Positions 1,700 through 60,408 of a stretch of 64,000 nt of DNA are shown here, piece by piece. A model generated the notes under the pieces. The model had not been told where the DNA came from. It saw only the letters and a list, made by a program, of their open reading frames with translations, and ran no database searches. Numbering within the stretch: the stretch's first letter is position 1; each line of letters opens with the position of its first letter. A program made the translations under genes and the position numbers. Source of the stretch: Cyanidioschyzon merolae (Eukaryota); the NCBI GenBank assembly GCA_000091205.1, contig AP006490.2; one strand, given 5' to 3'.

Positions 1700-2225
1700 T
1701 TTCGTTGGACATAAAGGCGGCGGTCAATGATACAGACTGCTTCACAACTGTGGAGGGCAAATATGTCTCCCTACCCGCAGACCCGTCTCGCTCTTTTTCA
1801 ACCGGCGTCTTGCTATTGTTTTCAGCTTCTCCTTTTAACCTTCGAGTCTGGGAGACTGTCCGACAAAGTTGTCTCGCGTCAGCTCCTCGGGGCCCGACTT
1901 CAGCAGTATACATCGTCGGCTATTGATGGAGGCTTGAAGACTTAGTCCACGAATTCTATGCGTTCACTGCCTCAGGTGGAACTCATCTATGCAAGGATTG
2001 CTCGAACTCGAGCTCACTTTGCCGCCGCGGCCTCGTTATTGTCCAGTCGGGCAAGCCCTCTTTCACGACTTTCTCTCCCGTACTACTTCGTCGTCGTCAC
2101 TCATTCGTCTTCGCTCGATGGTTGGCAAGAAGAGGATTTTCGTCTTTTTCCTAGTCGCACGCGATGACGGCACTCCAGGATCTCAGACTTCCATTCCGAG
2201 AACATTCCCTTGGGTTTTTTGTTTT
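1700..2225 (-). mobile_element. short (~0.5 kb) 3'-terminal derivative of the Fanzor/TnpB-like element family (sense on minus strand)
   Basis: Translations 1958..2167(+) and 1989..2228(+) parallel antisense frames of the 13.9-14.4 kb copy (LPQVELIYARIARTR / LPLVELINARIARTR). Minus-strand frames resemble the element 3' region (…TPVEKERDGSAGRETYL ~ …RPVKKDREVSACGY). Ends are approximate. Confidence 0.4.
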
Positions 2226-19501: not shown

Positions 19502-22500
19502 CGCTATGAGCCGGCACTACAGTGAGCGAGAAGCGTCGTTCCTGCCAAGTTTGGGGCGTAGGACACCATACCTCTTCCACCGCATCGTACAAGACGAGAT
19601 TCTTGAGACCGTCGACGCAGTAAAGCCTTCCTCTCACGCGCTGGCGCTCGTCCTGGAGCAGCACTAGAAGTTCACGGTGAAGCAGTGACTCAAGGAACGC
19701 CCTTCCTTCGTTCGCATTGTGGACGCCCATGAGTTTGTAGACGTCTCACCTGTAAAGCGAGATGCAAGAGCCTACGCAGCTACCGCTCTCAAAGTGAAGC
19801 ACATAGCTTGACGGCTAGCGCATTAAGATAACATTAATAGTTTGGATCTCTATTGTATGGGAACTCCGACCAGACGGAAGCTGCACACAAGCAGCAGCAC
19901 ACAGCCTGCCGTTCCTTGCACTCGAAAAAAACCTCATTTGTCTGCAGTGTTCCACGGGGGCGCCAGCCTCCCTCGTGGAGTGCGCACCATGGTGGCGTTC
20001 GCGAAAAACTTAATGTCCTCTTGTCTGAAGCCTGAAATCCCGTGTATTTATGGTGTATCAGTGCAAGTCTGAAAGGACATGCCCGTATACGCAAGCTCTG
20101 CCCGTGGTTAACGAGTGAAACTATGTTGTTTGACGCTTGCGATGGCATTGTTTAGCCTCCCTTTCACGGCCCGATCTAAGCGACTGTATCCCAAGCGCTC
20201 CAGCGAATGCCTCTGCTACGCCTGACAAACCGGGAAACCATGTCGTTAGATTGATCGAGCCTCCACATTCTCGGGTTTCATCATAAACTGGAACCGGTGG
20301 CTCGTAGGGACTCGTGTCAAGGTATTCATCCAGCCTTCACGCCGGGTGTTCATCTCCAAATGGAATTGGTTGAACGGAGGAGCGTCCGTGCTAAAGTCGG
20401 GATCTCCCAGTCGCTTTTATGTAGAGGAGTGAAATGCAGAACACGTATACAAGCACATTCCTCTCGGTCTTATTTATTTTTCCCATTGGTAGTCAACAAA
20501 ATCACTGTTGCGTTTGTACTAGAGAAAGACTGCAGAAAGACCTGATGCCCTCATTGCTGGACATCGAACAAACCGGCTTTACCTCTACAAGCCAGTTATT
20601 TGATGCTAAGCATGTGGACCTACCGCCCTTCTCGTAGTCCTCATTCTGAGCACCGAGCACCAAAAGCAGTACTCATCAGTCGCTATCTACACGACTGTCT
20701 CCTCCTCAATCATTTCCACTCGATTCTTTTTCGAAGAAAGACTACTGAGGAACCCACAAAACGGTGATCACCCTTTTCGTCCATACGAAGGAGACAAAGA
20801 AACACGGACTGATAGCAATAAAATCGCGCTTCTAGAGGAGACCGTCGAGGTTTTTTGCAGTATGCTGTCGCTTTGCGAATGAAATGAGAACGTTCGTTAC
20901 GGTACGGACGGTTGTTCGTCTCATTTGATGCGGCTTCATTCAGGAGAAATGCTAGACCTATTAATAGGTAATCAGAAGAGTGCAAGCGAATGCTATTAAA
21001 GCCGAGAGGAGCGAGAAGGACGATAACAGCTCTAATCGCGATTCAAACATATGGTTGCGTCCAAATTGTCCAATGGACATTATTGTGCAGCACCGTATCC
21101 TTCACTGAAGCACTCATCCAGTCTTTCTTCATACATTCTTGTGTCCTGCTATCAGACAGCATCGATTCCCTTGTCTTAAAAGAGGGCAATTGTACGCAGG
21201 CAGGATTCGCACTCAGCTGCTCTTCGTCCCAGCATATTATCCCTGGTTGTGTCATGTCGTCAGCATTAACCACCTTGTCAAACGACACTTCTACCCTACA
21301 GCTGCAGTAGACGAGTCAATCGCAACTGTTGCACCATTCTTCGAAGAGTCTTTGAAGGAGAATTTGTGTCCAGTGTTCATTTGTCCTGAACTGATTTGTG
21401 GCTCCTCTGCTTGTCGCCGGGAAAGAGCCGAAAGGCTCGCAAAGTTTCGATATCTTTCTCGCGATGTGGTAAGTGACGAAGATATTCCTGAAGATTGATA
21501 AGCTACAGCGTTGGACATGATGGAGTGCGCAATGCCCGTGCTCATACTCCTTCCAAAAGAGCATAGAACGTGTGAAGAAAATCTATTCTCTACGATTTTC
21601 ATCGATGAGTTCAGGTTGACACACGCATTACGAGCGCGGATGCACGCTGAAACTGATACGGAAGTCGACAGTGCAACAGGAGCCGATACACGAGCTGTTG
21701 TATGGTAAACTGACCAACAGCGAGATTACGAAGCCATCAAAGGCAAGAGACTTGATATTACGTGATTTCAGTAGTAATTATGCGCACGAGCACCTTCTGC
21801 ACAGAGACTTGAAAGCTCTGATCAAAATCCGGAAATGGTCCCGGCCTCCAGAGCGCCCAGTTCCTTTATGCCAAGCGAAATTTCGAGCAATTGTTTTTTG
21901 CACAGTGTGGTCACGAAGTTGAAACGAGAATGATTTGCCATTATAAGAGTCAATTGCAAAGAGAGAGGACGGTGGATTCTCGCACGGAGTGAGGTACTAG
22001 AATGGTACGGTCCACATTTCAAGGCTGGAGCGCTATTTATCCAACGCAAATGGCGTCGCTGGGCACTTAGCAGACGATAATGGTGTTCATTTGTTCGATA
22101 TTACTGAGCATGCATATAGCTATCCCTGATTTGGCAAATTTTAATTACACTCATCGATTCTGCAGCCGAAACTCTACGACATCTGGCCTTCCCAAAGCGC
22201 GCGCGTCAGTCATATTATCGAAAAGACGCTGGTCTGCTACAATTTGGCTTGCTTGTTCTGCTCCCCGATCGAGACTCTTCGTAAGAGTTTGCTCGCAAAT
22301 ATCAACCGCTCTGGCTGTATCGAACGTCGCTTTGGTACAGGCGTCTATGATGTTGATGTCCGCAAGGCCCTGCTAAGCTAAAACCAAACGTTTCACGACG
22401 ATCGAGGAAAGCTTTTCAAACGAAACGCTGCATATTCGTGGGAGAGTTTGTATCGAGATTAGGCGTATTGCACCGATCGAGCATCGAGAAATAGACGACG

Positions 22501-23572
22501 CCCTTTCAGAAAGACATCTGCTCTATATACCCCATCCAGATGGCCCGTATACTTCACACCTTGCTCTTGCATCTGTCGGCACTCGATTACAGTTTGCTAT
22601 ATTTTTCAGACCTGCAGCGTTCCCCAGTATGGATTTGGGATTCTAAACCAGGACCCGCACTTGAATTTGTTCATTTAGGCCAAGAATGAAGCATGCTATT
22701 TCGATATCTTCTGGTTACCAGCCGACAATGAGCTCGCAAGAGGACGACGGCCGCAACCAATGATCACATCAAGCAATACACTTATAGGCAATGATCCCCG
22801 TAAAGGCATCCCGTCGAGGTGTTCGATCGCCTCTCGTGCGAAACATATGCAGTTTATGAATGGCATAGTCGAATGTAGAATTTCAGTACAATGGGAATTG
22901 GTCGACATTGTCGGTAAACGCCGTGCCCGCAAGTCCGCCAAGTATCCGGAACGTGATCGAGAGAAAGCTTTTCCACGCGTTCGCTACTGTATCATTAAGC
23001 TCGATGGCAACACGTGATCCGAAACACTTTTCTTGTGCTTCCGGATGGTCCGGTCGGCTTCATGAATCCTGCATCCCTTAACCCAGCACGAGTGCATTGC
23101 GCACAGCAGACGCAGCATACGAAATTAGGCGCAATGCATTCATGATATCTGCGAAGGTCTTTCTGATCCTACTGGCAACTTACTCGCGCAGGCGAAGCCA
23201 TGAGATCGCCAATAGGCCCAGATTGCGCTTGAAACCGACAAGAACAAAATTGAGAGGACGTCAAACACAAATGAAACGTTTGGGGACCGACTGTGCACAG
23301 GATGAACACACTGATCAAGGAGGCGTCCAGTGATGGAGTCAATCAGTCGTCGTGTTCTGATTCATGCGTTGCATTCGCCTCCTCTGGTCGATTTTCATAC
23401 GTATGCGAGCCCAAATTCCTTTTTGTCATTTCCGAAACCTTCGGGCTGCGTTCTGGTGGGCTGGTGGATGAGGTTTGCAAGGGGCCCAGCGTTCTCAGGT
23501 GTGGAGACCTTGCTGAAATCCGGTACAGTAGCGTAGGATCCCTAGTCGGTATGAGTATGATCAAAATCACGC

Positions 23573-24337: not shown

Positions 24338-24422
24338 GCTGAGAACCCGCTGCCGACAGCGAACGCCTTTCAAAAGAAAAACGTTGCTGCCGGCGGTGGA
24401 CAGGAGCAGCGAGGAAGCCGCC

Positions 24423-25527
24423 CTAGACAAGACGTCTCCAACTTACGTACAGACGCCTCCCAGTCTCTTTCGACCGGCCACCCACTACTGGTTCCAACTT
24501 TTTCTCATATAATCCTACCTTAAGCGGTTGTCCAACAAAATATTCTCTTGTCAACTCCGGAGGTCTTCTTTCCATCACCGCACATTTCCTTATATTGATA
24601 GCGGCGTTAAAGTTTCGATTCACAAACTGCATGCGTTTCTTGCCATTGGTAGTTGGACTCACTAGTGCAAGTAGTCCACGAACTTTCGTCCTCCTTTCCA
24701 CTTGCTCTTTCGTCAGCGCTCCGAACATTTTTATATCCTCAGGGGTCTGCTGGCACTTTTCATCTCCAATCTCTGACGTTTACACCCCAATTGGTGGTGT
24801 GTATTGGTCGTTCGGAACTCATCTATCGGTATCGTGACGAAACGGTATGCGCACTCCTTGTACGCTCGTGTCGTTGGAGATGGCGCACACCTTTTTTTCG
24901 ACGCCCAGCGCCTTGCTCCGTATGCCACTACGAGCCTCTGACTCTTGTGCTCCTTCAGGGCGCTCAACTGATTGAAAAAGTTCGCGAGCGCGCGCCGCTT
25001 CCCACAATACAGGTTCACACGCAGAGGAGCCCACCGGCGATTTGTATACTCTTTCCACAGCGCCTCCCAATGAGCAGCGCGAACTTCCATGAATTTCAGA
25101 AAAGTCTGAAAGTCCGCTCCGCGGCTCGTCACCTCGCTCATAGCTTCCAGGTGGTCCTTCATTCCTTCGTTCCACATCTCGATTTTCTTCCTCGCATTCA
25201 TCATACCGGATTCTCGATAGTATCTCGCTCTCGAGAGCTTTAAAAGACGCATGTCTTTCTGACTTAAGTTGCCTTCAATGCCTCTTCCGCGCGCTTGGGT
25301 GCTGCGATGGCTATAATATTCGTGTTTCTGGGGTCCGCGCCAACGACAACGTCGTTCTCATGTACTTCTCGCGTCGCATGACCCGCCTCCTTCTCATCTT
25401 CATGCTTCGCCGCATCAACGACAAAGTCGGTCTCCTGCACCTCCTGCGTCGCAGGTTCCGCATCCTTCTTTTCTTCATGCTTCGCCGAGTGCGAAGCCGA
25501 AGACGGAACTGGACGATCCGCCTTCAA
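24423..25527 (-). pseudogene. C-terminal catalytic half of TnpB/Fanzor-like protein in copy A (RuvC-I, RuvC-II region, degenerate zinc ribbon, RuvC-III), split across three frames
   Basis: frames change at 25264/25252 and 24731/24728; RuvC-III Asp position is Asn (NRNF) in this copy. Confidence 0.6.
25369..25520. repeat. ~75-nt imperfect tandem duplication inside copy A (mirror in copy B at about 33037-33188)
   Basis: duplicated peptide AKHEEKKDAEPATQEVQETDFVVDA / AKHEDEKEAGHATREVHENDVVVGA immediately N-terminal to the RuvC-I motif; copy C has a single unit. Confidence 0.5.
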
Positions 25528-27996
25528 GAGCCGATAGTGTGCACATACGGGTACTCCATCGCTTTCGGTTATCCCCGTGAATATCTTTTTCTTGCCCTTA
25601 TTGAGACGTTTGAAGTCGGATATAGTTTTCCAAGAAGTCTAGAGGTTTCCACCAATAGATGCCTCCCCGCTTACATCTAACTCCGAACTGATCTCCAGCA
25701 TTACGTTGTGAATGTCGCTGGCGTCGATTGTCACAAAATGTGACTTGACGCCGCCGAGAGCAACGACGCTGAAGCGCCTCTCCGGAAACACAGCCATCCG
25801 TTTCGCCGACTCTCTATTTTCCCCCTACTCATCTGCAGTTCGGCCTTGCGTTCGAATTCTCGGTTCAGGAACACGAAATAGCGCAGGATGAGGGGATAAT
25901 ATCTTTTTCCATATCTGATACCTATTCTGCTGGGCTGACCAGCCCCAGGACCGCACGGTGCTCTTGAGCAGCCGCAGGGATCACAGAAGCTGCATTCGTG
26001 CTCTTGGTTGATGTCTTCTTGTCGACAAATTCGATCTCCTGTCCATTCTTACTATCGTTCGTGATGCTGGCAATGATGGTCCATCTCGCCCAGTGTGAGA
26101 CGCCCAAGTAGAGAGCAAAATTGGAGCGTTTCATGAAGCGTTCCAGGTTCATGGCCATATGGGTCTTTAGGTTCGTGAGGGACTTGATCGCCCCGTATTC
26201 GTAAATACGCGAGTCACCCCTCTATCGAGTACCGTTGAAGCGGTAGTTGGAGTGATGTTCGTGGAGGGCATGTAATCGCTCATTTCTCATCGACATTTAC
26301 CCTGTGCCAAATATTAGGTCACCAATAAAGGTCTTGTTGAAAAACTCTTCCGGAATCTCGAATATTTTGATGTGCGTGACGTCGCGATACATCTCCCTCG
26401 CCATATACATCAGTCCCAAAGAGGCGTAATTAACACTCCTGGAGTACGACTCCACACGGTTTCTGACGGCCTTTTGCGTCTCTTGCTCGTAGGGGTCCTT
26501 GATATGTCCAAGAAGACAGGCGTTCACTACCATCTCGTCGTACTCTCATCTTTCATGCAGCATGTGACATCGGACCTCCTGCATCTGCTTCTTCGTTTTC
26601 TCGTGTTCCTCTTTGCTCGGCGCGGTTTTTCTTTTTTTCCCGGCGGCCGGCAACATCGGCCCTTCAGGATCCCGACTTGCATGTGCGCTGCTTTCCTTTG
26701 GCGTTTTTATTTCGTCAAGATGATCGCACGTCTTCTTGCTCTTAGATGGGGCCTTCTCGGAGGGAGGGGGACTTTCGCAAGAAAAGCGACATGTGCCCCC
26801 ATGTTTTAGCGTGTGCAGAACGCTCAGCGATTTACCCAGCGCAGTGTTCATCAAAATTCTCGATAGAAAACGCTCCTTAGATGCGGCCGAACCACGGCGT
26901 GTACGAAGTAATGAGAAGCAACCCTATCCCTACAGATTCGGCAAAGACTCGAACGCAAGGGGAACGGTAAAACATCACGTTGCCCGACAGAGGGATGTTT
27001 CCAGACGTCAGGGGAAGAGTCTGCAATGATTCGACGCAGTGGTCGGTACCGTTGTATGACCGCTATCTACGAGCGAAGCTGAGGCCACCAGATGAATCCA
27101 CTCCACCCGTACCAGATGATATTCTCGTTCTCTTTGAGTTCGATCATACACACTATGGGCGCCCTGCTCCGCGAATACCCATGTACGCTCCGACAGTATC
27201 GTCCGAAGCAAGTCTCATTGACTAGAAAAACAAATCGATGCCCCTGCGCTTCAAACCGATCGCGACGATCCGAAGACGCTGTTGTTGCGATGTCGTTGGA
27301 CGATGGCCGAGCGTGAAATTGGTATTCGTTTTTCCGACTGTATCGCAGTGATTTCAGGACCACACGAACAAGCTGGTGAGTAAGAGAGACACCCGTTGTG
27401 GCTTCTATCATCGCTTTTGCCTTCCACGCGGTGATGAATCGGTTGTTTTTTACCACGGACCCCAAGCACGCTTTGTGAATATCGGTTTTTTGATACGGAG
27501 CGGGTGTAGTGGTTTCTTTCGGTGTTCCTCAACCAGCTGAGTACTCTCGAAAGACTGACCTGAAGGAGGAATACATTACTTGCACGCTTCAGTCAAGGAT
27601 ATATATCCTACATGCAAATCGCCTATGTTCTATACGGTACATTGCAGAGTGATATCGATCTCCTCCTATACACTGCAGCAGGGGTGAAACGTAATTGAGT
27701 TGAAAGAGCGCAGCTGGGAACATCGACTGTGTCGCAGTTCGCGCGCCCTGTACCGCCATTGAAATCATCGCGATCGCCGCGCTAGCGCGGGACACCATCG
27801 ATCCGATCCGCATGGCAGCTCGCGGGACGTCATCGATCCAACGGAAAACTATTTTTCGACGGACTGCTCGCATCATGAGGGTCTTTGAGAGCCTCAAATA
27901 TTAGGCTGAAGTGAAGTTTCGCTAACAATTTGGGTCCTTGCTGCTTTAAGTTGAGGTGTTTTGGTTTAGTGAGCACCTCATCTTGGGACGAATTGG

Positions 27997-30300: not shown

Positions 30301-30856
30301 ACATCAGCACAAACCTGAAGATGCAGCCAGTCGTGCATATTGTGAAGCGGTCTTCTCGTTCCTAGTTGTTACTGCAGGAGATTGCTTGTCCGGCTGATGC
30401 TGGGTCTCACGTATGTTAAGGGCGAGAGCAATCAAAGTGTAACCTCCGTCGAATGACAAAGGGAGCGCAACGATTGCACCTCTGTGGAACGCGGAACTCA
30501 CTGCTCTCAACGCTTCGCAGAACGACGTGGGCCATCAGCTCGGTGCGCATGTTTGCTTTGCAGCTCTCGAGAATCAAATGAACTGCTGGCGTAGCGCAAA
30601 ATAGTGCCCAATTCGCGCGCTAGTGCTTGCGTAAATTTACAAATCGTCGGGATAGAGAATTTCTCAAGTCGGCGTCAGAACAGCCCGTTCTGCCACAATC
30701 CTACACGGTGCAGCTCCACATAAAACCCTTTTCCCAACCGATCCACGAATCCGACAAGACTTTTGCTCACTTGTGGCGCAATTCTGCGAAACATGGACTG
30801 AGCAAAGGAGAAGAAGGAGCCTGTCGCTTATTCTCGTGTACAACTAACGTCTTTCG

Positions 30857-33800
30857 AATCAATTACGTTTCACCCCTGCTGCAGTGTATAGGAGGAGATC
30901 GATATCACTCTGCAATGTACCGTATAGAACATAGGCGATTTGCATGTAGGATATATATCCTTGACTGAAGCGTGCAAGTAATGTATTCCTCCTTCAGGTC
31001 AGTCTTTCGAGAGTACTCAGCTGGTTGAGGAACACCGAAAGAAACCACTACACCCGCTCCGTATCAAAAAACCGATATTCACAAAGCGTGCTTGGGGTCC
31101 GTGGTAAAAAACAACCGATTCATCACCGCGTGGAAGGCAAAAGCGATGATAGAAGCCACAACGGGTGTCTCTCTTACTCACCAGCTTGTTCGTGTGGTCC
31201 TGAAATCACTGCGATACAGTCGGAAAAACGAATACCAATTTCACGCTCGGCCATCGTCCAACGACATCGCAACAACAGCGTCTTCGGATCGTCGCGATCG
31301 GTTTGAAGCGCAGGGGCATCGATTTGTTTTTCTAGTCAATGAGACTTGCTTCGGACGATACTGTCGGAGCGTACATGGGTATTCGCGGAGCAGGGCGCCC
31401 ATAGTGTGTATGATCGAACTCAAAGAGAACGAGAATATCATCTGGTACGGGTGGAGTGGATTCATCTGGTGGCCTCAGCTTCGCTCGTAGATAGCGGTCA
31501 TACAACGGTACCGACCACTGCGTCGAATCATTGCAGACTCTTCCCCTGACGTCTGGAAACATCCCTCTGTCGGGCAACGTGATGTTTTACCGTTCCCCTT
31601 GCGTTCGAGTCTTTGCCGAATCTGTAGGGATAGGGTTGCTTCTCATTACTTCGTACACGCCGTGGTTCGGCCGCATCTAAGGAGCGTTTTCTATCGAGAA
31701 TTTTGATGAACACTGCGCTGGGTAAATCGCTGAGCGTTCTGCACACGCTAAAACATGGGGGCACATGTCGCTTTTCTTGCGAAAGTCCCCCTCCCTCCGA
31801 GAAGGCCCCATCTAAGAGCAAGAAGACGTGCGATCATCTTGACGAAATAAAAACGCCAAAGGAAAGCAGCGCACATGCAAGTCGGGATCCTGAAGGGCCG
31901 ATGTTGCCGGCCGCCGGGAAAAAAAGAAAAACCGCGCCGAGCAAAGAGGAACACGAGAAAACGAAGAAGCAGATGCAGGAGGTCCGATGTCACATGCTGC
32001 ATGAAAGATGAGAGTACGACGAGATGGTAGTGAACGCCTGTCTTCTTGGACATATCAAGGACCCCTACGAGCAAGAGACGCAAAAGGCCGTCAGAAACCG
32101 TGTGGAGTCGTACTCCAGGAGTGTTAATTACGCCTCTTTGGGACTGATGTATATGGCGAGGGAGATGTATCGCGACGTCACGCACATCAAAATATTCGAG
32201 ATTCCGGAAGAGTTTTTCAACAAGACCTTTATTGGTGACCTAATATTTGGCACAGGGTAAATGTCGATGAGAAATGAGCGATTACATGCCCTCCACGAAC
32301 ATCACTCCAACTACCGCTTCAACGGTACTCGATAGAGGGGTGACTCGCGTATTTGCGAATACGGGGCGATCAAGTCCCTCACGAACCTAAAGACCCATAT
32401 GGCCATGAACCTGGAACGCTTCATGAAACGCTCCAATTTTGCTCTCTACTTGGGCGTCTCACACTGGGCGAGATGGACCATCATTGCCAGCATCACGAAC
32501 GATAGTAAGAATGGACAGGAGATCGAATTTGTCGACAAGAAGACATCAACCAAGAGCACGAATGCAGCTTCTGTGATCCCTGCGGCTGCTCAAGAGCACC
32601 GTGCGGTCCTGGGGCTGGTCAGCCCAGCAGAATAGGTATCAGATATGGAAAAAGATATTATCCCCTCATCCTGCGCTATTTCGTGTTCCTGAACCGAGAA
32701 TTCGAACGCAAGGCCGAACTGCAGATGAGTAGGGGGAAAATAGAGAGTCGGCGAAACGGATGGCTGTGTTTCCGGAGAGGCGCTTCAGCGTCGTTGCTCT
32801 CGGCGGCGTCAAGTCACATTTTGTGACAATCGACGCCAGCGACATTCACAACGTAATGCTGGAGATCAGTTCGGAGTTAGATGTAAGCGGGGAGGCATCT
32901 ATTGGTGGAAACCTCTAGACTTCTTGGAAAACTATATCCGACTTCAAACGTCTCAATAAGGGCAAGAAAAAGATATTCACGGGGATAACCGAAAGCGATG
33001 GAGTACCCGTATGTGCACACTATCGGCTCTTGAAGGCGGATCGTCCAGTTCCGTCTTCGGCTTCGCACTCGGCGAAGCATGAAGAAAAGAAGGATGCGGA
33101 ACCTGCGACGCAGGAGGTGCAGGAGACCGACTTTGTCGTTGATGCGGCGAAGCATGAAGATGAGAAGGAGGCGGGTCATGCGACGCGAGAAGTACATGAG
33201 AACGACGTTGTCGTTGGCGCGGACCCCAGAAACACGAATATTATAGCCATCGCAGCACCCAAGCGCGCGGAAGAGGCATTGAAGGCAACTTAAGTCAGAA
33301 AGACATGCGTCTTTTAAAGCTCTCGAGAGCGAGATACTATCGAGAATCCGGTATGATGAATGCGAGGAAGAAAATCGAGATGTGGAACGAAGGAATGAAG
33401 GACCACCTGGAAGCTATGAGCGAGGTGACGAGCCGCGGAGCGGACTTTCAGACTTTTCTGAAATTCATGGAAGTTCGCGCTGCTCATTGGGAGGCGCTGT
33501 GGAAAGAGTATACAAATCGCCGGTGGGCTCCTCTGCGTGTGAACCTGTATTGTGGGAAGCGGCGCGCGCTCGCGAACTTTTTCAATCAGTTGAGCGCCCT
33601 GAAGGAGCACAAGAGTCAGAGGCTCGTAGTGGCATACGGAGCAAGGCGCTGGGCGTCGAAAAAAAGGTGTGCGCCATCTCCAACGACACGAGCGTACAAG
33701 GAGTGCGCATACCGTTTCGTCACGATACCGATAGATGAGTTCCGAACGACCAATACACACCACCAATTGGGGTGTAAACGTCAGAGATTGGAGATGAAAA

Positions 33801-34202
33801 GTGCCAGCAGACCCCTGAGGATATAAAAATGTTCGGAGCGCTGACGAAAGAGCAAGTGGAAAGGAGGACGAAAGTTCGTGGACTACTTGCACTAGTGAGT
33901 CCAACTACCAATGGCAAGAAACGCATGCAGTTTGTGAATCGAAACTTTAACGCCGCTATCAATATAAGGAAATGTGCGGTGATGGAAAGAAGACCTCCGG
34001 AGTTGACAAGAGAATATTTTGTTGGACAACCGCTTAAGGTAGGATTATATGAGAAAAAGTTGGAACCAGTAGTGGGTGGCCGGTCGAAAGAGACTGGGAG
34101 GCGTCTGCACGTTAGTTGGAGACGTCTTGTCTAGGGCGGCTTCCTCGCTACTACTGTCCACCGCCGGCAGCAACGTTTTTCTTTTGAAAGGCGTTCGCTG
34201 TC
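30857..34202 (+). mobile_element. Fanzor/TnpB-like element, full-length copy B (mirror of copy A), sense on plus strand
   Basis: exact reverse-complement of copy A apart from about 4 substitutions and a 6-nt gacagc duplication near 34196-34207; ORF pieces 31092..31490, 31703..32011, 32024..32260, 32399..32635, 33030..33293, 33305..33826, 33829..34134. Confidence 0.65.
33030..34134 (+). pseudogene. C-terminal catalytic half of TnpB/Fanzor-like protein in copy B (mirror of 24423..25527)
   Basis: identical translation to copy A except one residue (…RRLHVSW… vs …RRLYVSW…). Confidence 0.6.
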
Positions 34203-34386
34203 GCTGTCGTGGCCTGCACAGAGCGAGCGCTCAGGATATTCTTCTAGCAACTAAGGTGTCCTGGGTTGAAAGCCTGGTATCCTGCGCAGTCAGAAGTACT
34301 TTTACTGGCACGTGATGATTGGAAGCAGTGGAGCTGTGCTCCGGGGCTTCCAGGTTTCGACTTCGTGATTCAGAGCCAGCTTCAAA

Positions 34387-46726: not shown

Positions 46727-47521
46727 CTACTTTGGAGACCAGGGGCGCAGAGCGCTCCAAGACTTTGGATCGGAAACAGCAAACTCTAAAAGACAAGCTC
46801 CAATCGCATGGCCATCCTGTGGAACCTTAAGGCTAGCCGCTGCACTCCAATACGCGTCAAGTTTGAGTCTGCCCCTTTCAAGACTTGAAGAAAGCAGCGC
46901 GGGCATGAGTTCGGTCGTTGCGCCAAACTCAGGATGCCCCTGCAGGCACAGAATACGATCTTCGGGAAGCAAGTATCCTTCCACAGGACAAGATGGACTC
47001 GACGCCAATAATACAGCACCTGGCGGAAGTACCTGCACTTCGTCAAAGTGGAAGTATATCAGACAAACCGTGTCCGCGTCCAGGGTGCCCCCCGAGAGCC
47101 GTCGGAACAGCTCGCGTCCACGAGCAGTCAGCTGCGTCGAGACGCAACCAACCTCCGGGCCGGCGGCTACGGACCCGCACTTTCCACCCAGTGCCTCCGC
47201 TATGACCTGGTGGCCAAAACAGATCCCCACAAGGGGAATTCGACCACGTGCTCTTTGGATATTGTGTTTGAGCGTTTGAATCCACAGGTCTTCATCGTAC
47301 GCTGAGGAAAAAGAACCGCTTATGAACACGGCCCTCAGAGAGGAATCATCGAGATCAGGGAACTCACCCCGTGCTGCCTCATACCGTGTGTAGACCAAGT
47401 TCTTCTGTCCTGTTTGTTCAAAAAGTTGGACAAAGGCATCGAAAAACCCGCTGCAGCCTGTTCGTTGTTTCACAGCTTCCGGCAGCGTTTGGCAGTCAAC
47501 AACAGCTATTTGATCTATCAT
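46727..47521 (-). CDS. class I glutamine amidotransferase-like protein (GATase1 domain), 264 aa
   Basis: ATG at 47521; nucleophile elbow …LVGICFGHQVIAEALGG… and downstream His/Glu region; stop 9 nt from the convergent cyclin stop. Confidence 0.75.
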   Translation of the reverse strand: MIDQIAVVDCQTLPEAVKQRTGCSGFFDAFVQLFEQTGQKNLVYTRYEAARGEFPDLDDSSLRAVFISGSFSSAYDEDLWIQTLKHNIQRARGRIPLVGICFGHQVIAEALGGKCGSVAAGPEVGCVSTQLTARGRELFRRLSGGTLDADTVCLIYFHFDEVQVLPPGAVLLASSPSCPVEGYLLPEDRILCLQGHPEFGATTELMPALLSSSLERGRLKLDAYWSAAASLKVPQDGHAIGACLLEFAVSDPKSWSALRPWSPK

Positions 47522-47594
47522 ACATAAACGAAAAGATGCGGAGAATGCCTTGCACTGTACTGTTCTCTAGACACTTCAGGACGCCCTTTGCGCG

Positions 47595-50510
47595 TCGACA
47601 CAAGCGGTCGTGCCCGCGAGCAGCAGCGTACCCCAGTGTGTGAGGGCGAGGCAACGAAGGTTTCAACGGAGCGAAAACGTTTCGCGACTGCAGAGTACAC
47701 CAATACCGACGTACAGACGCCTCCCCGTCTTTTTCGACCGGCTGGCTGCCATCGGCTTCAGCTTTTCCTTGTACATTTCGACCCGGAGAGGTTCCCCCAC
47801 AAAATTGGCTCTTGTAAACTCCAGAGGTCTCCTCTCCGGCACCGCACATCTCCATATATTTGTAGCGGCGTTAAAGTCTCGATTCACGAACTCCATGCGT
47901 TTCTCTCCGTTGTGGCTGTACTCAATAATGTGAGTAGTCCTCGAACTTGAGCCCTCCGCTCCATTTCCTGTTCTGTCAGCTCTCCGTGCTTTTCTATATC
48001 CTCAGCGCTCCGCCGGCACTTTTCCATCTCGACCTGCTGAAATTTACACCCCAGCTCGTGGTGTATACATGACGTTCGAAACTCATCTACCAGTATTGTG
48101 ACAAAACTGTGTGCGCACTCCTTGTACGCTCGTGTCGATGAAGCTGGTATACTCCTTTTTTGGGAACCGAGCGCCCTGAACCGTATGCTATGATGAGCCT
48201 TGGACTCTTGGTCTCTTTGAGAGCGCTCAACTGATTGAAGAGATTGGAGAATGCATGTCGCTTCCCACGGTACAATTTCATACGCTGACGAGCTCAGCGG
48301 GGCTTTGTGTACTCTTTCCCCAGCTCCTCGTGATGAGCAGCTCGTGTTTCCATGAACTCTAGAAAAGCTTGAAAGTTCGCTCCGCGGCTCTTCACATTAC
48401 TGATCACTTCCAGGTGCTCCATCGCTCCTGCGTTCCGTTTCTCACTTTTTTCCTTGCATTCATTATTCCCCATTCTCGGTAGTATCTCGCTCTCGAGAAC
48501 ATTAAAAGACGCGTATCGTTTCAGCATAAGTTGCCTTTGGTACCATTTTTGCTACATTTGGGAGCAGGGATGGTCATGATGTTCGTGTTCCCAGGGTAAA
48601 GGACTACGACAACGTCGTTCCCCTGCAGCTCCTGCGTCGCAAGATGCGCCTCCTTTTCTTGATGCCTCGCCGAGGACGAAGCTGTAGACACAATAGGACG
48701 ATCTGCCTTCAAGCGCCGATAGTGTCCATACATGTATACTCCATCGCTTCCGATCATCCACGTGAACACCTTTTTCTTGCTCATTTTGCGACGTTTGAAA
48801 TCGAAGATATATCTACAAAATGACTCACGGTTTTCGCCAGTGAACTCCTCCCTGCTTACATTGAACTCCGAGCTGATCTCCCTCATGATACCGTCATGGG
48901 CTGCGAAGTCGATTGTCACAAAGTGCTACGTGATCTCGCATATCGGAACGACATGGGAGCGCTTCCCCAGAAGCGCAGCCTTCCGTTTCTCCGACTTTTT
49001 TCCCACAACCGGCTCCATTTCGGCCTTGCGTTCGAGTTCTCGGTTCACGAACGCGATGCAGCCCAGGATGAGAGGATAAAATCTATTTTCATCTTTGTTT
49101 CATATCTGATACCTATTCTACTGGGTTGACCAGCCCCAAAACTGCACGTTGCTCTTGAATAGTCGCACGGATCACAGAGGCGTCATTCTTTCCTATGTGT
49201 GATGTGTTCTCGTCGATGAATTCGATCTTCTTTTCATTCTTACTATCGTTAGCGATGCCATCGACGAGGGTCCATCTTGCCCTGCGAGATACGCCCGGGT
49301 AGAGTGCAAGTGTGAAGCGTACCATGAAGCGTTTGAGGTTCACGATCATGTAGTTCCTCAGGTCCGTGAGGTACTTGATCTCCCCGTAGGAGAAAATATC
49401 CGCGTCACCCCTGTGTCTAGTACCGTCGAAGCGGAATACGGGGTGAATTTCGTGGAGTGCACGTTCTTGCTCATTTCTCCTGGAGGTTTCCCCAATGCCA
49501 AATATCAGTTGACCAATAAAGGTTTTGCTGAGAAACCCTTCCGGGACATCGACTGTTTTGATGTGCGGCACGTAGCGATACATCTCCCTCGCCATATGCA
49601 TCAGTCCCAAAGAAGTGTTACGAACACTGTTCGCGAAGGAAGCGACACGGTTTCTGATGGCCCTTGCATCTCTTTTCTTGTACAGATCCTTTATACGGCG
49701 TTGAAGACAGGCTTTCACCAGCATCTCGTCGCACAGTTCTCTTTCGTGTAGCGTTTGACGTTGGGCCTCCTGCTTCTGCTTCTTTGTGTTCTCGTGTTCC
49801 GCTTTGCTCGGCACAGTTTTTCGTTTTTTTTCCGGCGGCCAACGACACCGTCCCTTTAGGATATTCTACTTCCATGTCTATATCCATGAGCGAAAGTGAG
49901 GCCGCCGAATAAATCCTCTGCAGATAGAACGGATGATGTCCTCTTTCTCATCGAGCTCGATCATACGCACAACGGACTCCCTCTCCGCAAATAATCACAC
50001 ACGCTCCGACCGGTTCGCCCGAAGCAAGTCTCACTGACAGAAAGGAATCGACTTCCCTGTGCTTCAGACCGATCGCAACGTTCCAGGAAAGCTGTTATTG
50101 CGAATTCGATGGAAGACAGCCGTGGGTGAACTAGGGCTCTGTTTTTGTGACAGTATTCGATTGTTTTCAGGACCACACGAACAAACTGGTGAGAAATGAA
50201 GGCGCCCGTTATGGCTTCTATCGTCGCTTTTGCCTTTCATACGATGAAAAATCGGTGGTTTCCTACCACGGACCGAAAGCACGCTTTGAGAAAGCCGGCT
50301 CTATGGCGCAAAGCGAATACATTTGTTTCTTTCAGTGCTCCCCACCCAAATGAGTACTGTGGTACGACTGGCCAGAAGGGGAAAGGCAATCTTTCTGGCA
50401 CTGTCCAGTGAGGAGTACATGCTACAGGCAATTCGTCTACGATCTATAAGGTACGTTGCATCGTGATTTCGACTACATAACATACACCGCAGCGAGGATG
50501 AAATAATATT
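47595..50510 (-). mobile_element. Fanzor/TnpB-like element, full-length diverged copy C (about 70% nt identity to copies A/B), sense on minus strand, interrupted
   Basis: Collinear ORF pieces 50301..50525, 50064..50282, 49113..49814 (233 aa, spanning three pieces of copy A), 48521..48919 (RuvC-I region, VVVVLYPGNTNIMTIPAP), 48294..48527, 48087..48281, 47663..47896 (MEFVNRDFNAATNI). Terminal nucleotide homology to copy A at both ends was aligned by hand. Confidence 0.6.
47663..48919 (-). pseudogene. C-terminal catalytic half of TnpB/Fanzor-like protein in copy C; RuvC-I Asp replaced (GADP to VLYP), private nonsense codon after …KEYTKPR
   Basis: same frame-shift position between RuvC-I piece and next piece as in copies A/B; stop where copies A/B encode Trp. 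Confidence 0.55.
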
Positions 50511-52964
50511 CTGTTGAAAGAACATAATCGAAGTCTCTGACTGCAGAGGTCTTGATTTGGTTTGAGATACAGGTAGCAGCCCCTATTCCAGATAAGCAGT
50601 GTACTGCGTGATGCCGTTCTCCTTGCACCTTTGAACGGGATGTTTTCGTCTTGATGTTCTTCGAAACATGTGCAGCAGCCAGCCCCGTGTCAGATCAAAA
50701 AGAGAGCACTTCACTTCTCTCTCTATTCCAGCTTTCCGATATTACCTAACTGCTTTACATGAACACTCTTGACATCCAAAGTGCAGCAACGCGCTGTTAT
50801 GGGTTCATACGTAGTTCTAGGCATCCAGGCCGTCTCCTGGACTATCTGCCTTAGGGCTTTGCTCCTGGAAATCTTCGCGTCACTGAAATTATGATAAATC
50901 CGCAACGCTTTCGAATAAGCGTTTGTAAAAGAATCGATTTCATTATCCAATTCATACGTTCTAGTCTCCAAGCTTCTCCTTTCCTTCCATGCAGCATGCT
51001 CGAATTTCAGAGTTTCCAAGCTTCGATCTCTCCCTTTCAGGGCGACTCGTGAGCGCGGCAATTGTCGCTGCTGGGTTGACAACGGAAAATCAGCCGACGA
51101 CTTTCCTTGAAAAATTCATTCCAAGCTCATGCCGAATGTTGACGTCGCTTCTTACGCCTAATTATTGGTACCATAATTTAGATAAATTGTCGTCTGTTTG
51201 TAGCTATCGAAGAAAGGGGCTTCCACAATAGCATGCTACCTGTTATGCGTTATGCTCCAAGTTGATTCCATGTCTTCTTCTTAGCTGGAAAGCGTCTTAG
51301 AATCGGAATGAACGCTTCCCAGTTATCCCTTCTGGTAGAGCGGGCGCCAATGATTTCAACGAAGGTAGCATAGACGAATCGAAATTCTTCGACTTGTCGC
51401 CCAAACTGGATATTCCTTGCCATAGGTATTCGATCATGGACACCATCGCACTCCACAAATAATCTGTCGAATGAGAGAGCATGCGCTTGCATGTGCAGCA
51501 CACAAAGTGCTCGCCGTTTGGATTGCCTAGAACAAGTCCACGATCGTACGGGTAAGGCACCGGGAGCGGAAGCAGTAATGGGCAACAAGGGTGAGCCTTC
51601 TGTACCCCTCAAGGACATCCAACGAGAAAGAGTGCAAGCGATCACGCGACGCTTTACTGCGCTCCGAGGAGTAGGTGTGGTGCGCATATAGGAGCACCTG
51701 ACAACAATGAAGTGGCACCGCTTCGAAGCGCTCACCAAGGCTCTATACTGGAAACATGGACATGTTTAGCGAAGCGTAGATCGCGTTTTTGGCTGGTGCA
51801 TCAAATGCATAGAGAACAGCCGGCAACTGCGAAAATGGGATTTTGATGCTTTTATCAATATCAGTTGATTGCTGGCAACGGAACCGGAGGGAATAGAGAG
51901 ACCGGCGTGTGTAGAGTTGGAAATAAGAGAGAGAAAAAGGAAGCAGTCGTGGGAAACCCCGCAAACGGTGGTGTTGATGAAGACCGAAGAGACTCAAATG
52001 CTAGTGTGTACACCAGAGTCCGATTCGTGGACTTGTTTCTTTCATTTTGACATGGGTGTAGGACTCTCCTGCCGAATACCGCACCCGTCGCAAACAAAAT
52101 ACGAGAGTCGGTACGCGCATTCAAAGTGCACGTGGTGCTGCGAATCTCCGATGCTCCCCTGTTCTGGAAACTCTATGCCCTGAAGCCTGGACGGCAACCT
52201 GGTTGGAAACCTATCTGTCACGAACAACCTTGCGAACTACGTTTAAGCCCTGCAGCATCACAGAAAAGCTGACTCAAATCCGAGCTGGAAACGTTGCACT
52301 CGGTGCAGTGTTGCTTTTTCAGGGTAAAGCGCGAAACAAGGTCGCGTGTGGGAGTTCACCAAAACGAACAGTATTCCATTCGAAAAACGTGCAAGTCGTT
52401 GCCATGTTGCTTGCAACAACACGTTGTGGCGTCTTTTCGGTTCGTTGCGCATAATCGCCGGTGTTAAGCGAGTTGCCTGGGTGAAGAGCGGAAATGTAAC
52501 GCGATACTAGCAACGATGCGTATCCCGTGAACGAGAGGCAGGTAGGAGCCCGCGGTCTCAAAGAGCAAGGCGATTTCCAAAATCAGGCCAGAACGATTTC
52601 TTCCAGCCAAATCTATCAACAGGCGAGAGCTTCATTGGCCGGGTGGGTATTAAACTCAACACACAACGGCCTCCGTGATCCACGACTCCCGTTCTGCATT
52701 CCTCGGAGGAACACTGGCTCGATCGATCTCGTGAGCCGCAGTGTGCTGTGCGCGAACGCACGCCGCTTCCGGTAACGCTGCCGGTAGGCCGATTTCGGGC
52801 GATGAAGCGGGCGCTGCGAACGCTTGCAACTGCGCCCACTTCTGACAGCTCTCTCGGCGCGTGAAAACTCGGGGCGACTTCCGGTCGCGATCGTACGCTT
52901 CAAGAGAGCCTGGGGCTAGAGGAGAAGCTGTAGACACTTGCGCGACGTTTTTCGGTTTTGCGTA

Positions 52965-59055: not shown

Positions 59056-60408
59056 ATGCGCTTTTTCCTTTCTTTTTGTGTTTTTTCTCAGCGCACGGTG
59101 AAGTATCCATCAAACCCCTACCTCCAATTTACATTACCTATACTTCTTCTCGGATATACTGGTCGTTTCGTACGTCCAATCGTGTGCCTAGTGCCTGCCG
59201 AAAGCGACAGCAATAGCGCCTACAGCGCCGGTGCGGTCGCTGCACGGAGACAGAACGGCGTTGCTGTACCACAGAGCGCGTCGGCTCGAGGATTGATCCG
59301 TGGGGCGCGCGGGAGCGCGTCTTCCGTTGACGCCACTCTACTTGGGAGCCGCGCTCGGCAGGTGCACCCCTGGAGAGCGAGCTCAGCCATGGGTAGCGAA
59401 CTTGAGACTGGACACGCGGACCGGAGCACAAGTCGCTCTGATGATGGGCCAACGCCGACCCAAGGTTCTTTTGAACCTGGGGAAGAACCTTCGGAGCTAC
59501 ACCGTTCGCGCACGGAGGCCACGACGCCTCCGAATCGCTCGCGCCTCCGCCAGATTCTCTGCGAAGAGCCTTCCACCGAACTGGTTCACTCGTGGATTGG
59601 TCCATCTGATGAAGTGGAACAGAAAGGAACGCCGCGGAGCGTCCCAAAAACTGAAACGAAGCTTTTGACACGAACAGCTTACTCGGAACTGCGGAGAAAC
59701 CTAAAATCGGAACGGCTCAATCGTAGGCTTTTCATGAAAGAACTTGACGAGGCCGTTACTGATTTTGAGCGGACCGAAATTATTCTGCGTTCACAAGAGC
59801 GCGAGCTTCACCAGGGTCTAGCTCTCCTGAACCATCAGGCAAGTGGGTCAGCCGAGGCGAGTGCCGCCCCGAGTCCGAACAGACCGAGCCCTGAAATTGT
59901 ACAGGGCAGTTCGGTACTTCGGCGACGGAGACTGACGCCTGCGCGGGAACGCAGTTCAGGTTTAGACCCTGGCCTGGCAGCTCTGAGGCTCGATGCCGCT
60001 GATGTTGAAATTGAAAAGCTCGGGGCCGAAACGAAAGCAATTTTCCTACAAACGCAGCAGGTCTCGGCGTCACTTGCACAGATGGCCCAAGTGTTGGGGA
60101 CGCTGCTCAATTCAATGAACGATTTGAATCGAAGAGAACCGCTCGACGAAACTCGTTCTAGTCAGGGACACGCTCCGGCTGACGTGCACGAAACCAGCAC
60201 GGAGCGTCGCACGGAATCGGGTGCGCAGACCTATCCGGCTTCGTTCTGGAAGGAACCAGCATGCAGTCAGCAGCACGTTTGCCAATCGAAGAGAACGAGC
60301 ATGAGCGCGCTGCTTAAGGTCGGTGGTGCTCTCACTGTGCTATCTGTTCCTGTCTATCTGTTGGTGCTCTGGTTGCTCTTTGAAGAAATGACGTACTGGC
60401 TCGTGTAG
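59056..60408 (+). CDS. hypothetical coiled-coil protein with C-terminal tail anchor (450 aa)
   Basis: ATG at 59056; long polar/coiled-coil region, single C-terminal hydrophobic helix …LLKVGGALTVLSVPVYLLVLWLLF…; no assignable family. Confidence 0.4.
   Translation: MRFFLSFCVFSQRTVKYPSNPYLQFTLPILLLGYTGRFVRPIVCLVPAESDSNSAYSAGAVAARRQNGVAVPQSASARGLIRGARGSASSVDATLLGSRARQVHPWRASSAMGSELETGHADRSTSRSDDGPTPTQGSFEPGEEPSELHRSRTEATTPPNRSRLRQILCEEPSTELVHSWIGPSDEVEQKGTPRSVPKTETKLLTRTAYSELRRNLKSERLNRRLFMKELDEAVTDFERTEIILRSQERELHQGLALLNHQASGSAEASAAPSPNRPSPEIVQGSSVLRRRRLTPARERSSGLDPGLAALRLDAADVEIEKLGAETKAIFLQTQQVSASLAQMAQVLGTLLNSMNDLNRREPLDETRSSQGHAPADVHETSTERRTESGAQTYPASFWKEPACSQQHVCQSKRTSMSALLKVGGALTVLSVPVYLLVLWLLFEEMTYWLV

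Follow-up and report, generated by a model that had tools for sequence, protein, structure and literature searches.

Cyanidioschyzon merolae has very few transposons, and its main DNA element is the Fanzor1 family CMe-1. Fanzor1 is a eukaryotic TnpB-like RuvC nuclease and a relative of the CRISPR-type RNA-guided nucleases; its guide, an RNA derived from the 3' end of the element that carries it, directs DNA cutting. The ancestral form is bacterial TnpB (IS200/IS605 and IS607), likewise a RuvC nuclease, which is guided by an RNA (omega RNA or reRNA) that the 3' end of the element itself supplies. In Mariner-type Fanzor1 elements such as PUl-1 (Pythium ultimum) and PGv-1, the Fanzor1 gene is preceded by a DDE transposase gene, which occupies the 5' end. 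In C. merolae, CMe-1A has been described as ~150 copies, ~80% identical to a 3,169-bp consensus that encodes a 734-aa Fanzor1, with no terminal inverted repeats (TIRs) and an undetermined target-site duplication (Bao & Jurka 2013, Mobile DNA 4:12, PMC3627910; Repbase).

The window, which is the whole 64-kb stretch of C. merolae DNA that was analysed, holds two nearly identical copies (A and B) of one element and a third, diverged copy (C). We consider copy C, at a probability of about 0.92, to be an old, dead insertion of a Fanzor1 DNA transposon with a CMe-1/CMe-1A body and a 5' module derived from a DDE_3 gene. Its Fanzor1 body is the family already published for the C. merolae genome. What lies beyond the published consensus is that A, B and C carry this module, probably of DDE_3 origin, in place of the 5' end formed by TE-N2_CMe. 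A preliminary description made from the letters of the window had, without identifying the element, read copy C as a third full-length member of the A/B family, and that reading was supported overall, with the small corrections given below.

Extent and surroundings of copy C

The reverse complement of 47,001-51,200 was used as a BLASTN query against the 64-kb window. Three collinear HSPs to copy B were obtained, with matching HSPs to copy A in mirror image. The termini of copy C were placed by comparison of copies, and its 3' tail was delimited in a family alignment.

47568..50521, minus strand: copy C, whole element (collinear BLAST and MAFFT alignment to A and B)
50,503/50,521-49,881, aligned with B 30,868/30,850-31,493: HSP 1, 73% identity, E = 1e-99
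49,877-48,606, aligned with B 31,873-33,139: HSP 2, 76% identity, E = 0
48,672-47,709, aligned with B 33,145-34,112: HSP 3, 76% identity, E = 0
47568..47745, minus strand: decayed 3' tail of copy C

Nucleotide identity between copy C and copies A and B was 73-76% on the minus strand (E = 0), and the same end-to-end order was recovered in a repeat search and in a global MAFFT alignment. The end-to-end collinearity of C with B confirms the membership in the A/B family that had been proposed. Copies A and B differ at only 7 of 3,354 positions and C differs from both by ~24-27%, so that the family predates the A/B pair, as had also been argued.

The 5' end of copy C, set by comparison with A, B and two further loci (L061 and L062), is 50,521; the element begins TCTTTCAAC, and its first bases are identical in A and B. 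The 5' homology aligned by hand in the preliminary description was genuine, with the true start lying ~10 nt further out. At the other end, pairwise homology between C and B stops at 47,709, and comparison with ~60 family copies placed the 3' end between 47,581, where a remnant of the terminal hairpin (...CAAAGGGCG) is found, and ~47,568. Because the decayed tail reaches ~47,581 and possibly 47,568, the earlier placement at 47,595 is about right. Relative to A and B, the term full-length does not quite hold for copy C, from which ~390 bp of 5' module and leader (B 31,494-31,885) is missing. Copy C also has one 75-bp tandem unit fewer than A and B, and together these absences explain its length of 2.94 kb against 3.35 kb.

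The start codon of the glutamine amidotransferase (GATase) gene is at 47,521, in the same orientation and 46-59 bp from the 3' end of copy C, which agrees with the placement of the element immediately upstream of this gene. A search for an empty site that would show the target duplication found the locus occupied in every relative compared (99.7%, 99.3% and ~93% identical, the latter two environmental), which speaks for an old insertion.

The occurrence of all three copies within 26 kb of one chromosome, with C in the orientation of A, could suggest that copy C arose together with A and B by segmental, non-transpositional duplication. We judge this very improbable, since similarity is bounded by the element termini. 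The 30 nt flanking each copy at either end have nothing in common among A, B and C; the 5' junctions between flank and element read ...TAACG|TCTTTC in B, ...TGCGC|TCTTTC in A and ...TATGT|TCTTTC in C, with 3' flanks that are likewise unrelated. No homology beyond the element ends was found between the C locus and the A and B loci. Several hundred related copies with the same 3' terminus lie on other contigs of relatives, and the 10D genome holds ~150 copies (Bao & Jurka 2013, PMC3627910). Copy C is accordingly a separate copy, as the preliminary description had it, with its homology ending at the termini just as in A and B.

The Fanzor1 body and its decay

47668..49887, minus strand: Fanzor1 pseudogene; its homologue in the CMe-1A consensus is the 734-codon ORF at nt 906-3110
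49113..49814, minus strand: longest open piece (ORF list), 233 aa, from the N-terminal, non-RuvC part of Fanzor1
48598..48672, minus strand: single 75-bp repeat unit (25 aa, Lys/Glu-rich) just upstream of RuvC-I (repeat search)
48560..48610 (approximate), minus strand: RuvC-I motif region (in-register translation against CMe-1)
47890..48100 (approximate), minus strand: RuvC-II and RuvC-III motif regions (in-register translation)

Positions 905-3092 of the CMe-1A consensus matched C 49,882-47,705 in one HSP at 79.6% identity. Global alignment of C with CMe-1A gave 78.3% nucleotide identity over 2,271 nt (K2P 0.26) and, in register, 64% amino-acid identity; the divergence is typical of the copies reported. 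Copy B matched consensus positions 871-3169 at 81-87%. Positions 1-870, which include the 635-bp TE-N2_CMe, had no match in A, B or C, and copy C is therefore a 5'-variant, chimeric relative rather than a canonical CMe-1A copy. TE-N2_CMe itself occurs elsewhere in the window (10,588-11,198 and 59,117-59,295). CMe-1A and copy C thus share a genome, the 734-codon Fanzor1 ORF, the lack of TIRs and the same 3' terminus with a CGTTTTTC-TTTT-GAAAGGCG hairpin; they differ in that the 5' part of CMe-1A is TE-N2_CMe plus a leader (consensus positions 1-904), whereas A, B and C have another module there (a 640-bp piece of it in C), and in that copy C is non-coding. The sequence conserved in the family extends ~10-20 nt past the published 3' end of CMe-1A. 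A T-rich motif upstream of TE-N2_CMe copies was considered as a target motif and dropped, it being likelier that the published consensus is a few nt short.

Single-sequence searches linked copy C or its pieces to no Pfam family and no PDB chain. Pfam had no significant match for the ORF pieces, for a 367-aa conceptual protein of B or for seven long homologues, and neither phmmer of the conceptual protein nor a profile built within the family (A1) matched any PDB sequence. A broader profile (A2), made from three family members and 40 distant relatives (E < 1e-46), matched PpFz1 (9cf0, E = 2.1e-19), SpuFz1 (8gkh, E = 2.6e-13) and GtFz1 (9cer, E = 1.4e-4). The Asp-Glu-Asp residues D421, E592 and D658 are invariant columns of this alignment (GxDPG, VDEFRT and NRDxNAA), and the CMe-1 consensus keeps the triad (GADPG, VDEFRT and NRDFNAA).

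An AlphaFold model based on the shallow within-family alignment reached a pLDDT of only 37 and could not be used. For family member P0027, an AF2 model had a pLDDT of 83.3 and a pTM of 0.79, and in a Foldseek search of the PDB its ranks 1-7 were all Fanzor1 (E = 3e-13 to 2e-9, TM 0.46-0.61). Cas12 and TnpB structures ranked after these; TnpB 8H1J was among the weaker fold matches. The predicted fold of the CMe family resembles the solved structures of SpuFz1 (8GKH, 9CEU-9CEZ), PpFz1 (9CF0-9CF3) and GtFz1 (9CER-9CET) over ~600 columns, with the RuvC triad in common (GxDPG, DEFRTS, NRDxNAA) at only 13-16% identity. The assignment to Fanzor1 rests on the family profile, the predicted model of the family and the published consensus.

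Two features set the family apart from the solved proteins. One is the variable 25-aa Lys/Glu-rich tandem repeat before RuvC-I, present as one 75-bp unit in C, two in A and B (B carries a 75-nt insertion relative to CMe-1A) and 1 to at least 6 in other members. The other is the zinc ribbon, CPRC/CPKC and GCTNPNC/RCKNMSC in SpuFz1/PpFz1, of which the CMe family lacks both CxxC/CxxxxC pairs. Between RuvC-II and RuvC-III, the CMe-1 consensus has no canonical C4 zinc finger of the Fanzor/TnpB kind: TSYTHHELGC...EKC is followed by RGLLALVSTT at the place of the CxxxxC of relatives, so that at most H-H-C-C is left. CMe-1 was classed as Fanzor1 by its describers despite the zinc-finger motif in their scheme (Bao & Jurka 2013, PMC3627910). 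Intact members of the family may have RNA-guided activity. The 3' end of the CMe family, which overlaps the stop of the ORF, is conserved and putatively structured, and it is a candidate counterpart of the TnpB guide RNA. Unlike the TnpB elements, CMe resides in a eukaryotic nucleus, encodes a far larger protein and lacks TnpA.

Relative to CMe-1A, copy C has six frameshifts (~49,830, 49,096, 48,444, 48,165, 47,912 and 47,685) and four in-register stops (49,115, 48,928, 48,523 and 48,296). Its original start codon is now ATA. Where the family reads VVGADPGNTNI at RuvC-I, copy C reads VVVLYPGNTNI; with VLYPG in place of GADPG, the catalytic Asp, which is invariant in the alignment of distant relatives, has become Tyr. 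RuvC-II is still legible as VDEFRTS, with its Glu, and RuvC-III as FVNRDFNAATNI, with its Asp; the two stand in different reading frames, and the ORF at 47,663-47,896 encodes MEFVNRDFNAATNI. Differences between B and C are distributed nearly equally over the three codon positions (0.265, 0.216 and 0.256). The lost Asp, the frameshifts and the stops make copy C a Fanzor1 pseudogene and no Fanzor1 gene. Judged by its sequence, it cannot make either the nuclease or a guide RNA today.

The preliminary description had dwelt on the ORF pieces and on where they are broken. The pieces are indeed collinear with those of A and B, at 43-65% amino-acid identity, a little under the 60-70% claimed. The 233-aa piece (58% identity to A/B by tblastn) does span three same-frame pieces of B, where stops stand at 32,009, 32,258 and 32,333, and it ends at a TAG common to A and B. 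Of 40 copies compared, B and C alone have this change, K256->TAG (C 49,113-49,115; B 32,633-32,635); in each of the 38 others the codon is a sense codon, AAG in 33 cases. The idea that the copies are broken at different places is borne out by the tally of six frameshifts and four stops in C against five and five in B, except for this common stop.

That RuvC-II and RuvC-III remain recognisable and that a 233-aa ORF survives might suggest a gene that still works through splicing or programmed frameshifting. Such a gene is extremely improbable in view of six frameshifts and four in-register stops across the whole ORF, the Asp to Tyr change at RuvC-I, the ATA start codon, the near-even spread of substitutions over codon positions and the presence of a sense codon, in every one of the 38 other copies, where B and C have their common stop. 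An intron at 49,113, where the conserved TAG is followed by GTATCAG, was rejected, as other copies simply have AAG in an uninterrupted ORF.

The 5' module and the 3' tail

49881..50521, minus strand: 5' module X', equivalent to the initial 640 bp of the ~1-kb module of A and B (B 30,850-31,858), 72-73% identical to B 30,850-31,493

Module X' is broken by frameshifts. Besides A, B and C, the metagenome locus L061 has the module, joined there to a Fanzor core, and in L062 the module stands alone. In a protein search with a 132-aa module ORF, the only matches were two more decayed fragments; no intact transposase turned up, and Pfam gave no match for those two fragments. The consensus of the full module from four decayed copies matched Pfam DDE_3 (PF13358, E = 5.1e-8, 33.3 bits, cut-off 28.6). 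This match falls in the part that copy C has lost; the retained part gave only HTH_33 (E = 0.02-0.04), and residues 1-104 of the module consensus protein matched C 50,278-49,970 by tblastn at 65% identity (E = 1e-34). The DDE_3 motif is visible in L061 and B, and L061 reads GIELIYIRPYSPWLNRIEGAFSIV in one frame. Aligned with the PUl-1 Mariner transposase, the module consensus matched across its DN...H and PPYSPxLNPxE motifs, the second and third catalytic motifs (pairwise E = 7e-5). On these comparisons, module X' appears to descend from the N-terminal portion of a transposase gene of the DDE_3 (IS630/Tc1/mariner) type, of which the helix-turn-helix and first catalytic Asp regions would remain.

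TIRs and a TA target-site duplication are typical features of Tc1/mariner elements. No inverted repeat joined the ends of B, and with the ends of A, B and C inspected directly no TIRs were found; there was also no TA target duplication at the flanks of A, B or C. PUl-1, by contrast, has 24-bp TIRs and TA duplications (Bao & Jurka 2013, PMC3627910). A further difference from PUl-1 is that the transposase gene is decayed in all module copies here, and copy C is without its catalytic half. A DDE_3 transposase may have mobilised the A/B/C subfamily.

Copy C could also be two unrelated relics side by side, a DDE_3-type fragment at 49,881-50,521 and a CMe-1A truncated at its 5' end from the start codon on. 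In keeping with this, the 5' end of the CMe-1A consensus is different (its positions 1-870 are absent from B and C), the junction in C is unlike that in A and B owing to the missing counterpart of B 31,494-31,885, and L062 has the module without the Fanzor core. Nevertheless, in A, B and C the same module is placed immediately upstream of the same core and runs the same way, and L061, an unrelated metagenome locus, shows this arrangement too. Copies A and B are bounded exactly by the first base of the module and the last bases of the core, with unrelated flanks, which indicates that the unit moved or was copied whole. Furthermore, the cores of B and C share 185 derived substitutions and one nonsense codon and thus belong to one subfamily. 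We therefore regard the pairing of two unrelated relics as unlikely and retain the single, old Fanzor1 transposon insertion. As a more specific proposal, put forward tentatively and with the odds against it, A, B, C and L061 may represent a chimeric Fanzor1 element that the CMe-1A consensus did not capture, in which the DDE_3 gene replaced TE-N2_CMe.

In intact relatives, a conserved multi-hairpin region overlaps the end of the ORF and forms the terminus of the element. The tail of C carries 19-nt and ~15-25-nt insertions relative to the family. RNA fold z-scores were -4.1 for the tail of B, -1.6 for the family consensus and +1.0 for the tail of C. RNAalifold found almost no consensus structure in an alignment of 47 3' ends, and in 47,000-51,000 neither Rfam (E up to 1) nor a tRNA scan gave a match. 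With a 3' structure mapped by hand, 80.9% of cells were paired versus 79.8% after shuffling, and 19 of 500 shuffles attained the covariation score. The weak covariation is partly due to the two alternative, perfect variants of the family terminal hairpin, which lie in different registers, and to most copies being decaying pseudogenes. The 3' tail of the family is a candidate omega-RNA scaffold and may act as such in intact members.

Proposed history and significance

From the start codon to the 3' end, the body of the element is that of CMe-1/CMe-1A, whose intact members encode a Fanzor1 of ~734-780 aa. By analogy with TnpB, this nuclease and a guide RNA from its own element would probably help the element to persist. 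In the A/B/C subfamily, TE-N2_CMe and the leader would have been swapped for a module derived from a Tc1/mariner/IS630-type DDE_3 gene, giving a chimeric 'transposase + Fanzor1' layout as in other eukaryotes; of the module, copy C retains only the first 640 bp. Copy C would then have inserted 46-59 bp upstream of the GATase gene and decayed neutrally, and the frameshifts, the stops, the loss of the catalytic Asp and a 3' tail without excess RNA structure would be the outcome.

For annotation, the 2.9-kb stretch directly upstream of the GATase gene should be entered as the relic of a Fanzor1 transposon instead of as genes, and so should the broken ORFs that metagenome records list for it. The A/B/C subfamily would add to the examples in which a cut-and-paste transposon has captured a Fanzor1, and the DDE_3 remnant beside Fanzor1 hints at the former mobility route of the unclassified CMe family. 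If the chimeric element of A, B, C and L061 is real, it would provide the first link to a transposase superfamily for this 'unclassified' red-algal Fanzor1 family, and copies A and B, dead but almost identical, would have been copied recently in trans. The conserved 3' terminal hairpin with its two perfect variants would then mark the omega RNA, or a cis-acting end, of a Fanzor1 clade that functions with no canonical zinc ribbon. Together, the conserved 3' hairpins and the RuvC domain lacking a zinc ribbon may guide the rebuilding of an active Fanzor1 from a thermo-acidophile, for which the intact relatives, and not the dead copy C, would be the source.

Extent and collinearity of copy C

The window encodes the RuvB-like helicase BAM79727, the glutamine amidotransferase (GATase) BAM79740 and XPF BAM79736, each recognized by an exact match to the C. 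merolae 10D protein; hot-spring metagenome contigs also contain the locus of copy C, the minus-strand element upstream of the GATase gene. Two other whole elements of the same family form the arms of the 'palindrome'.

Whole elements compared with copy C
24354-27707, minus strand: copy A, from TCTTTC... to ...GCGTTCGCTGTCG
30850-34203, plus strand: copy B, from TCTTTC... to ...GCGTTCGCTGTCG

When the reverse complement of 47,001-51,200 was searched against the window with BLASTN, copy C gave three collinear HSPs to copy B (73-76% identity, E-values from 1e-99 to 0), and its HSPs to copy A mirrored these. Repeat search and global alignment returned the order of A and B from end to end, and not local similarity alone, which bears out the collinearity proposed in the preliminary description; the interpretation given there is supported overall, with minor corrections. 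One of these concerns the term 'full-length': copy C is collinear with A and B but lacks the counterpart of B 31,494-31,885 (~390 bp) and has one 75-bp tandem unit versus two in B.

The hand alignment of the 5' end had caught real homology, but a more sensitive search placed the true start at 50,521. The first bases common to A, B and C are TCTTTC(A/G)A, and the flanks upstream are unrelated. Pairwise similarity between C and B fades at 47,709; in an alignment with ~60 other family copies, the tail of copy C could be traced through two insertions to a terminal hairpin remnant (...GTCGACGCGCAAAGGGCG) ending at ~47,581, so that the 3' end first proposed, 47,595, is a near match. Between the element's 3' end and the start codon of the GATase gene (47,521), which has the same orientation, lie 46-59 bp. 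As described earlier, the 233-aa ORF at 49,113-49,814 spans three same-frame pieces of copy B, which stops at 32,009, 32,258 and 32,333 set apart.

The 'palindrome' arms are exactly the whole elements A and B, and their four flanking sequences are unrelated. Between the arms, 7 of 3,354 positions differ, and all but one of these fall either in the 3' tail or no more than 10 nt from the 5' end; this pattern suggests that an already dead element was copied, or underwent gene conversion, very recently.

Assignment to the Fanzor1 family CMe-1A

The C-terminal pieces of the element bear the motifs GADPGNTN, VDEFRTS and FVNRDFNAAINI, which are suggestive of a TnpB/Fanzor RuvC nuclease. Single-sequence searches of Pfam and PDB with the element proteins gave no match, and the conceptual B protein had more than 200 relatives (60-70% identity) among JGI and ENA metagenome proteins, all of them unnamed. 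An exhaustive profile search returned 1,378 relatives, many of 600-700 aa. In an alignment of 40 relatives with three family members, the Asp, Glu and Asp of GxDPG, VDEFRT and NRDxNAA were invariant, and the corresponding profile matched the Fanzor1 proteins of Parasitella parasitica (9cf0, E = 2.1e-19), Spizellomyces punctatus (8gkh, E = 2.6e-13) and Guillardia theta (9cer, E = 1.4e-4). AlphaFold reached a pLDDT of 37 with a shallow alignment and 83 (pTM 0.79) with a deeper one. Foldseek against the PDB ranked seven Fanzor1 structures first (E = 3e-13 to 2e-9, TM ~0.5-0.6), followed by Cas12 and TnpB. The zinc ribbon cysteine pairs between RuvC-II and RuvC-III, a defining Fanzor1 feature, are absent in the family, where the region reads THHELGC...EKC and RGLLALVSTT.

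Directly before RuvC-I lies a Lys/Glu-rich unit of 25 aa (75 bp) whose tandem copy number varies between family members, from one to six or more.

Sites of the 25-aa repeat
33070-33219 and 48598-48672, in the window
P0001, P0004 and P0005, family proteins

One Fanzor1 family has been described in C. merolae, CMe-1A (Bao & Jurka 2013, PMC3627910). It has ~150 copies, each ~80% identical to a consensus of ~3 kb, and no TIRs; a few intact copies remain, and its 5' 635 bp is a separate repeat, TE-N2_CMe. The consensus (3,169 bp) and protein (734 aa) are in the supplementary files (PMC3627910). Consensus 905-3092 aligned to C 49,882-47,705 as a single HSP with 79.6% identity, and consensus 871-3169 aligned to B with 81-87%. 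Judged by this direct match, the body of copy C is a typical, rather diverged CMe-1 copy.

Further family-related features of the window
1772-2310, minus strand: internally deleted CMe-1A derivative, ~0.6 kb
13818-14363, plus strand: internally deleted CMe-1A derivative, ~0.6 kb
21620-21853, plus strand: C-terminal fragment of a distant Fanzor, with 32% identity to the family consensus (E = 2e-7)

Both derivatives fuse consensus ~800-968 to ~2760-3090. The two share 70-75% identity and lie in inverted orientation on either side of ~11.5 kb of host genes, an echo of the A/B arrangement. The distant fragment sits in a stretch without long ORFs (20000-23500) and may be what remains of a second and older Fanzor family.

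The 5' module of copies A, B and C

No part of CMe-1A consensus 1-870 was found in A, B or C, which have a different 5' module.

5' module and TE-N2_CMe sequences
30,850-31,858, in copy B: 5' module of A/B, ~1 kb
50,521-49,881, minus strand, in copy C: remainder of the module, its first 640 bp, directly abutting the Fanzor start-codon region
10588-11198, minus strand: solo TE-N2_CMe copy, 78% identical to consensus
59117-59295, plus strand: TE-N2_CMe fragment, 83% identical to consensus

Among metagenome loci, the module is joined to the Fanzor core in L061 and occurs without it in L062. The translated four-copy module consensus has a helix-turn-helix region and, after it, a transposase-like region reading ...FVFSVNETCFG... 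and DVLLLDNVVFYHSPCVRVFADSVGIELLFIPSYTPWFDRIEGAFSIV, and matches Pfam DDE_3 (PF13358) at E = 5.1e-8, better than the curated cut-off. The L061 module alone reads GIELIYIRPYSPWLNRIEGAFSIV in a single frame, and the Mariner transposase of PUl-1, also a Fanzor1 element, can be aligned to the transposase region (pairwise E = 7e-5). The DDE_3 match, the L061 motif and the PUl-1 alignment point to a 'DDE transposase plus Fanzor1' layout of the A/B/C subfamily, like that already known from elements of other eukaryotes. The transposase gene of the subfamily is dead. The A/B/C copies showed neither TIRs nor TA duplications, a search for an intact relative of the module transposase found none, and the piece kept by C gave no significant domain match by itself.

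In most TE-N2_CMe/CMe-1A copies (loci L026-L082; window ~11199-11210), (C)TGATTTTTC lies directly 5' of the published consensus start CGATGACAAAACG; either the CMe-1A consensus is a few nt short or insertion sites are preferentially T-rich.

Decay of copy C and the conserved 3' end

Against the published ORF, copy C has 78.3% nucleotide identity (K2P 0.26) and 64% amino-acid identity.

Lesions of copy C relative to the published ORF
~49,830, ~49,096, ~48,444, ~48,165, ~47,912 and ~47,685: six frameshifting indels
49,115, 48,928, 48,523 and 48,296: four in-register stops

The original start codon of copy C is ATA and its RuvC-I Asp is Tyr; in copy B, Asn takes the place of the RuvC-III Asp. B and C differ to almost the same extent at the three codon positions (0.265, 0.216, 0.256), which indicates neutral decay since their separation. 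The 185 substitutions shared by B and C relative to a consensus of 38 other copies have a third-position bias (58/36/89), suggesting that the lineage of their common ancestor was under coding-gene evolution. The lesions had been described as differing between copies, and with a single exception they are private: B and C share a TAG at codon 256, which in the 38 other copies reads AAG 33 times and never TAG. B and C may thus descend from an already disabled source; parallel mutation to TAG is the alternative. An ORF of more than 700 codons was present in one of 41 distinct full-length copies sampled from relatives, in agreement with the published description of an old family in which few members are intact (PMC3627910).

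Relatives 99.3% and ~93% identical carry the insertion at the same site. In the latter (L089:1-2380), also upstream of the GATase gene, the upstream half is 71% identical to C, versus ~93% for the downstream half and flanking genes together; one lineage may have undergone conversion by a different copy, which would explain this contrast.

The last ~130 nt of the family, including the stop codon, are well conserved and end in CGTTTTTC-TTTT-GAAAGGCG followed by ~10-20 GT-rich bases; this conserved GT-rich stretch runs past the published consensus end. A second variant of the terminal hairpin, CGTTCGA-CTT-TCGAACG, also forms a perfect stem.

3' ends with versions of the terminal hairpin
Loci L007-L086, e.g. 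L028:4415-4545 and L055:3235-3365

The tails of the consensus (z = -1.6) and B (z = -4.1) fold into an outer stem around three hairpins, plus the terminal hairpin, a fold that the tail of copy C (z = +1.0) lacks. Formal covariation was weak and no Rfam match to the 3' end was obtained. In analogy to TnpB and to Fanzor1 complexes with solved structures, the conserved 3' end is likely an omega-RNA scaffold or a cis-acting end.

Other Fanzor1 proteins are RNA-guided RuvC endonucleases whose guide RNA comes from the 3' end of their own element. Intact CMe-1 members most likely act in the same way, with a guide RNA most likely supplied by their own 3' end, and the nuclease would probably aid retention of the element. 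Copy C can neither perform RNA-guided cleavage nor supply a guide RNA. It remains as a fixed relic in neutral decay, a pseudogenised copy from a family of transposons that the literature already records for the C. merolae genome. The sole, modest addition to that family is the chimeric 5' module, of probable DDE_3 origin, in the A/B/C subfamily.
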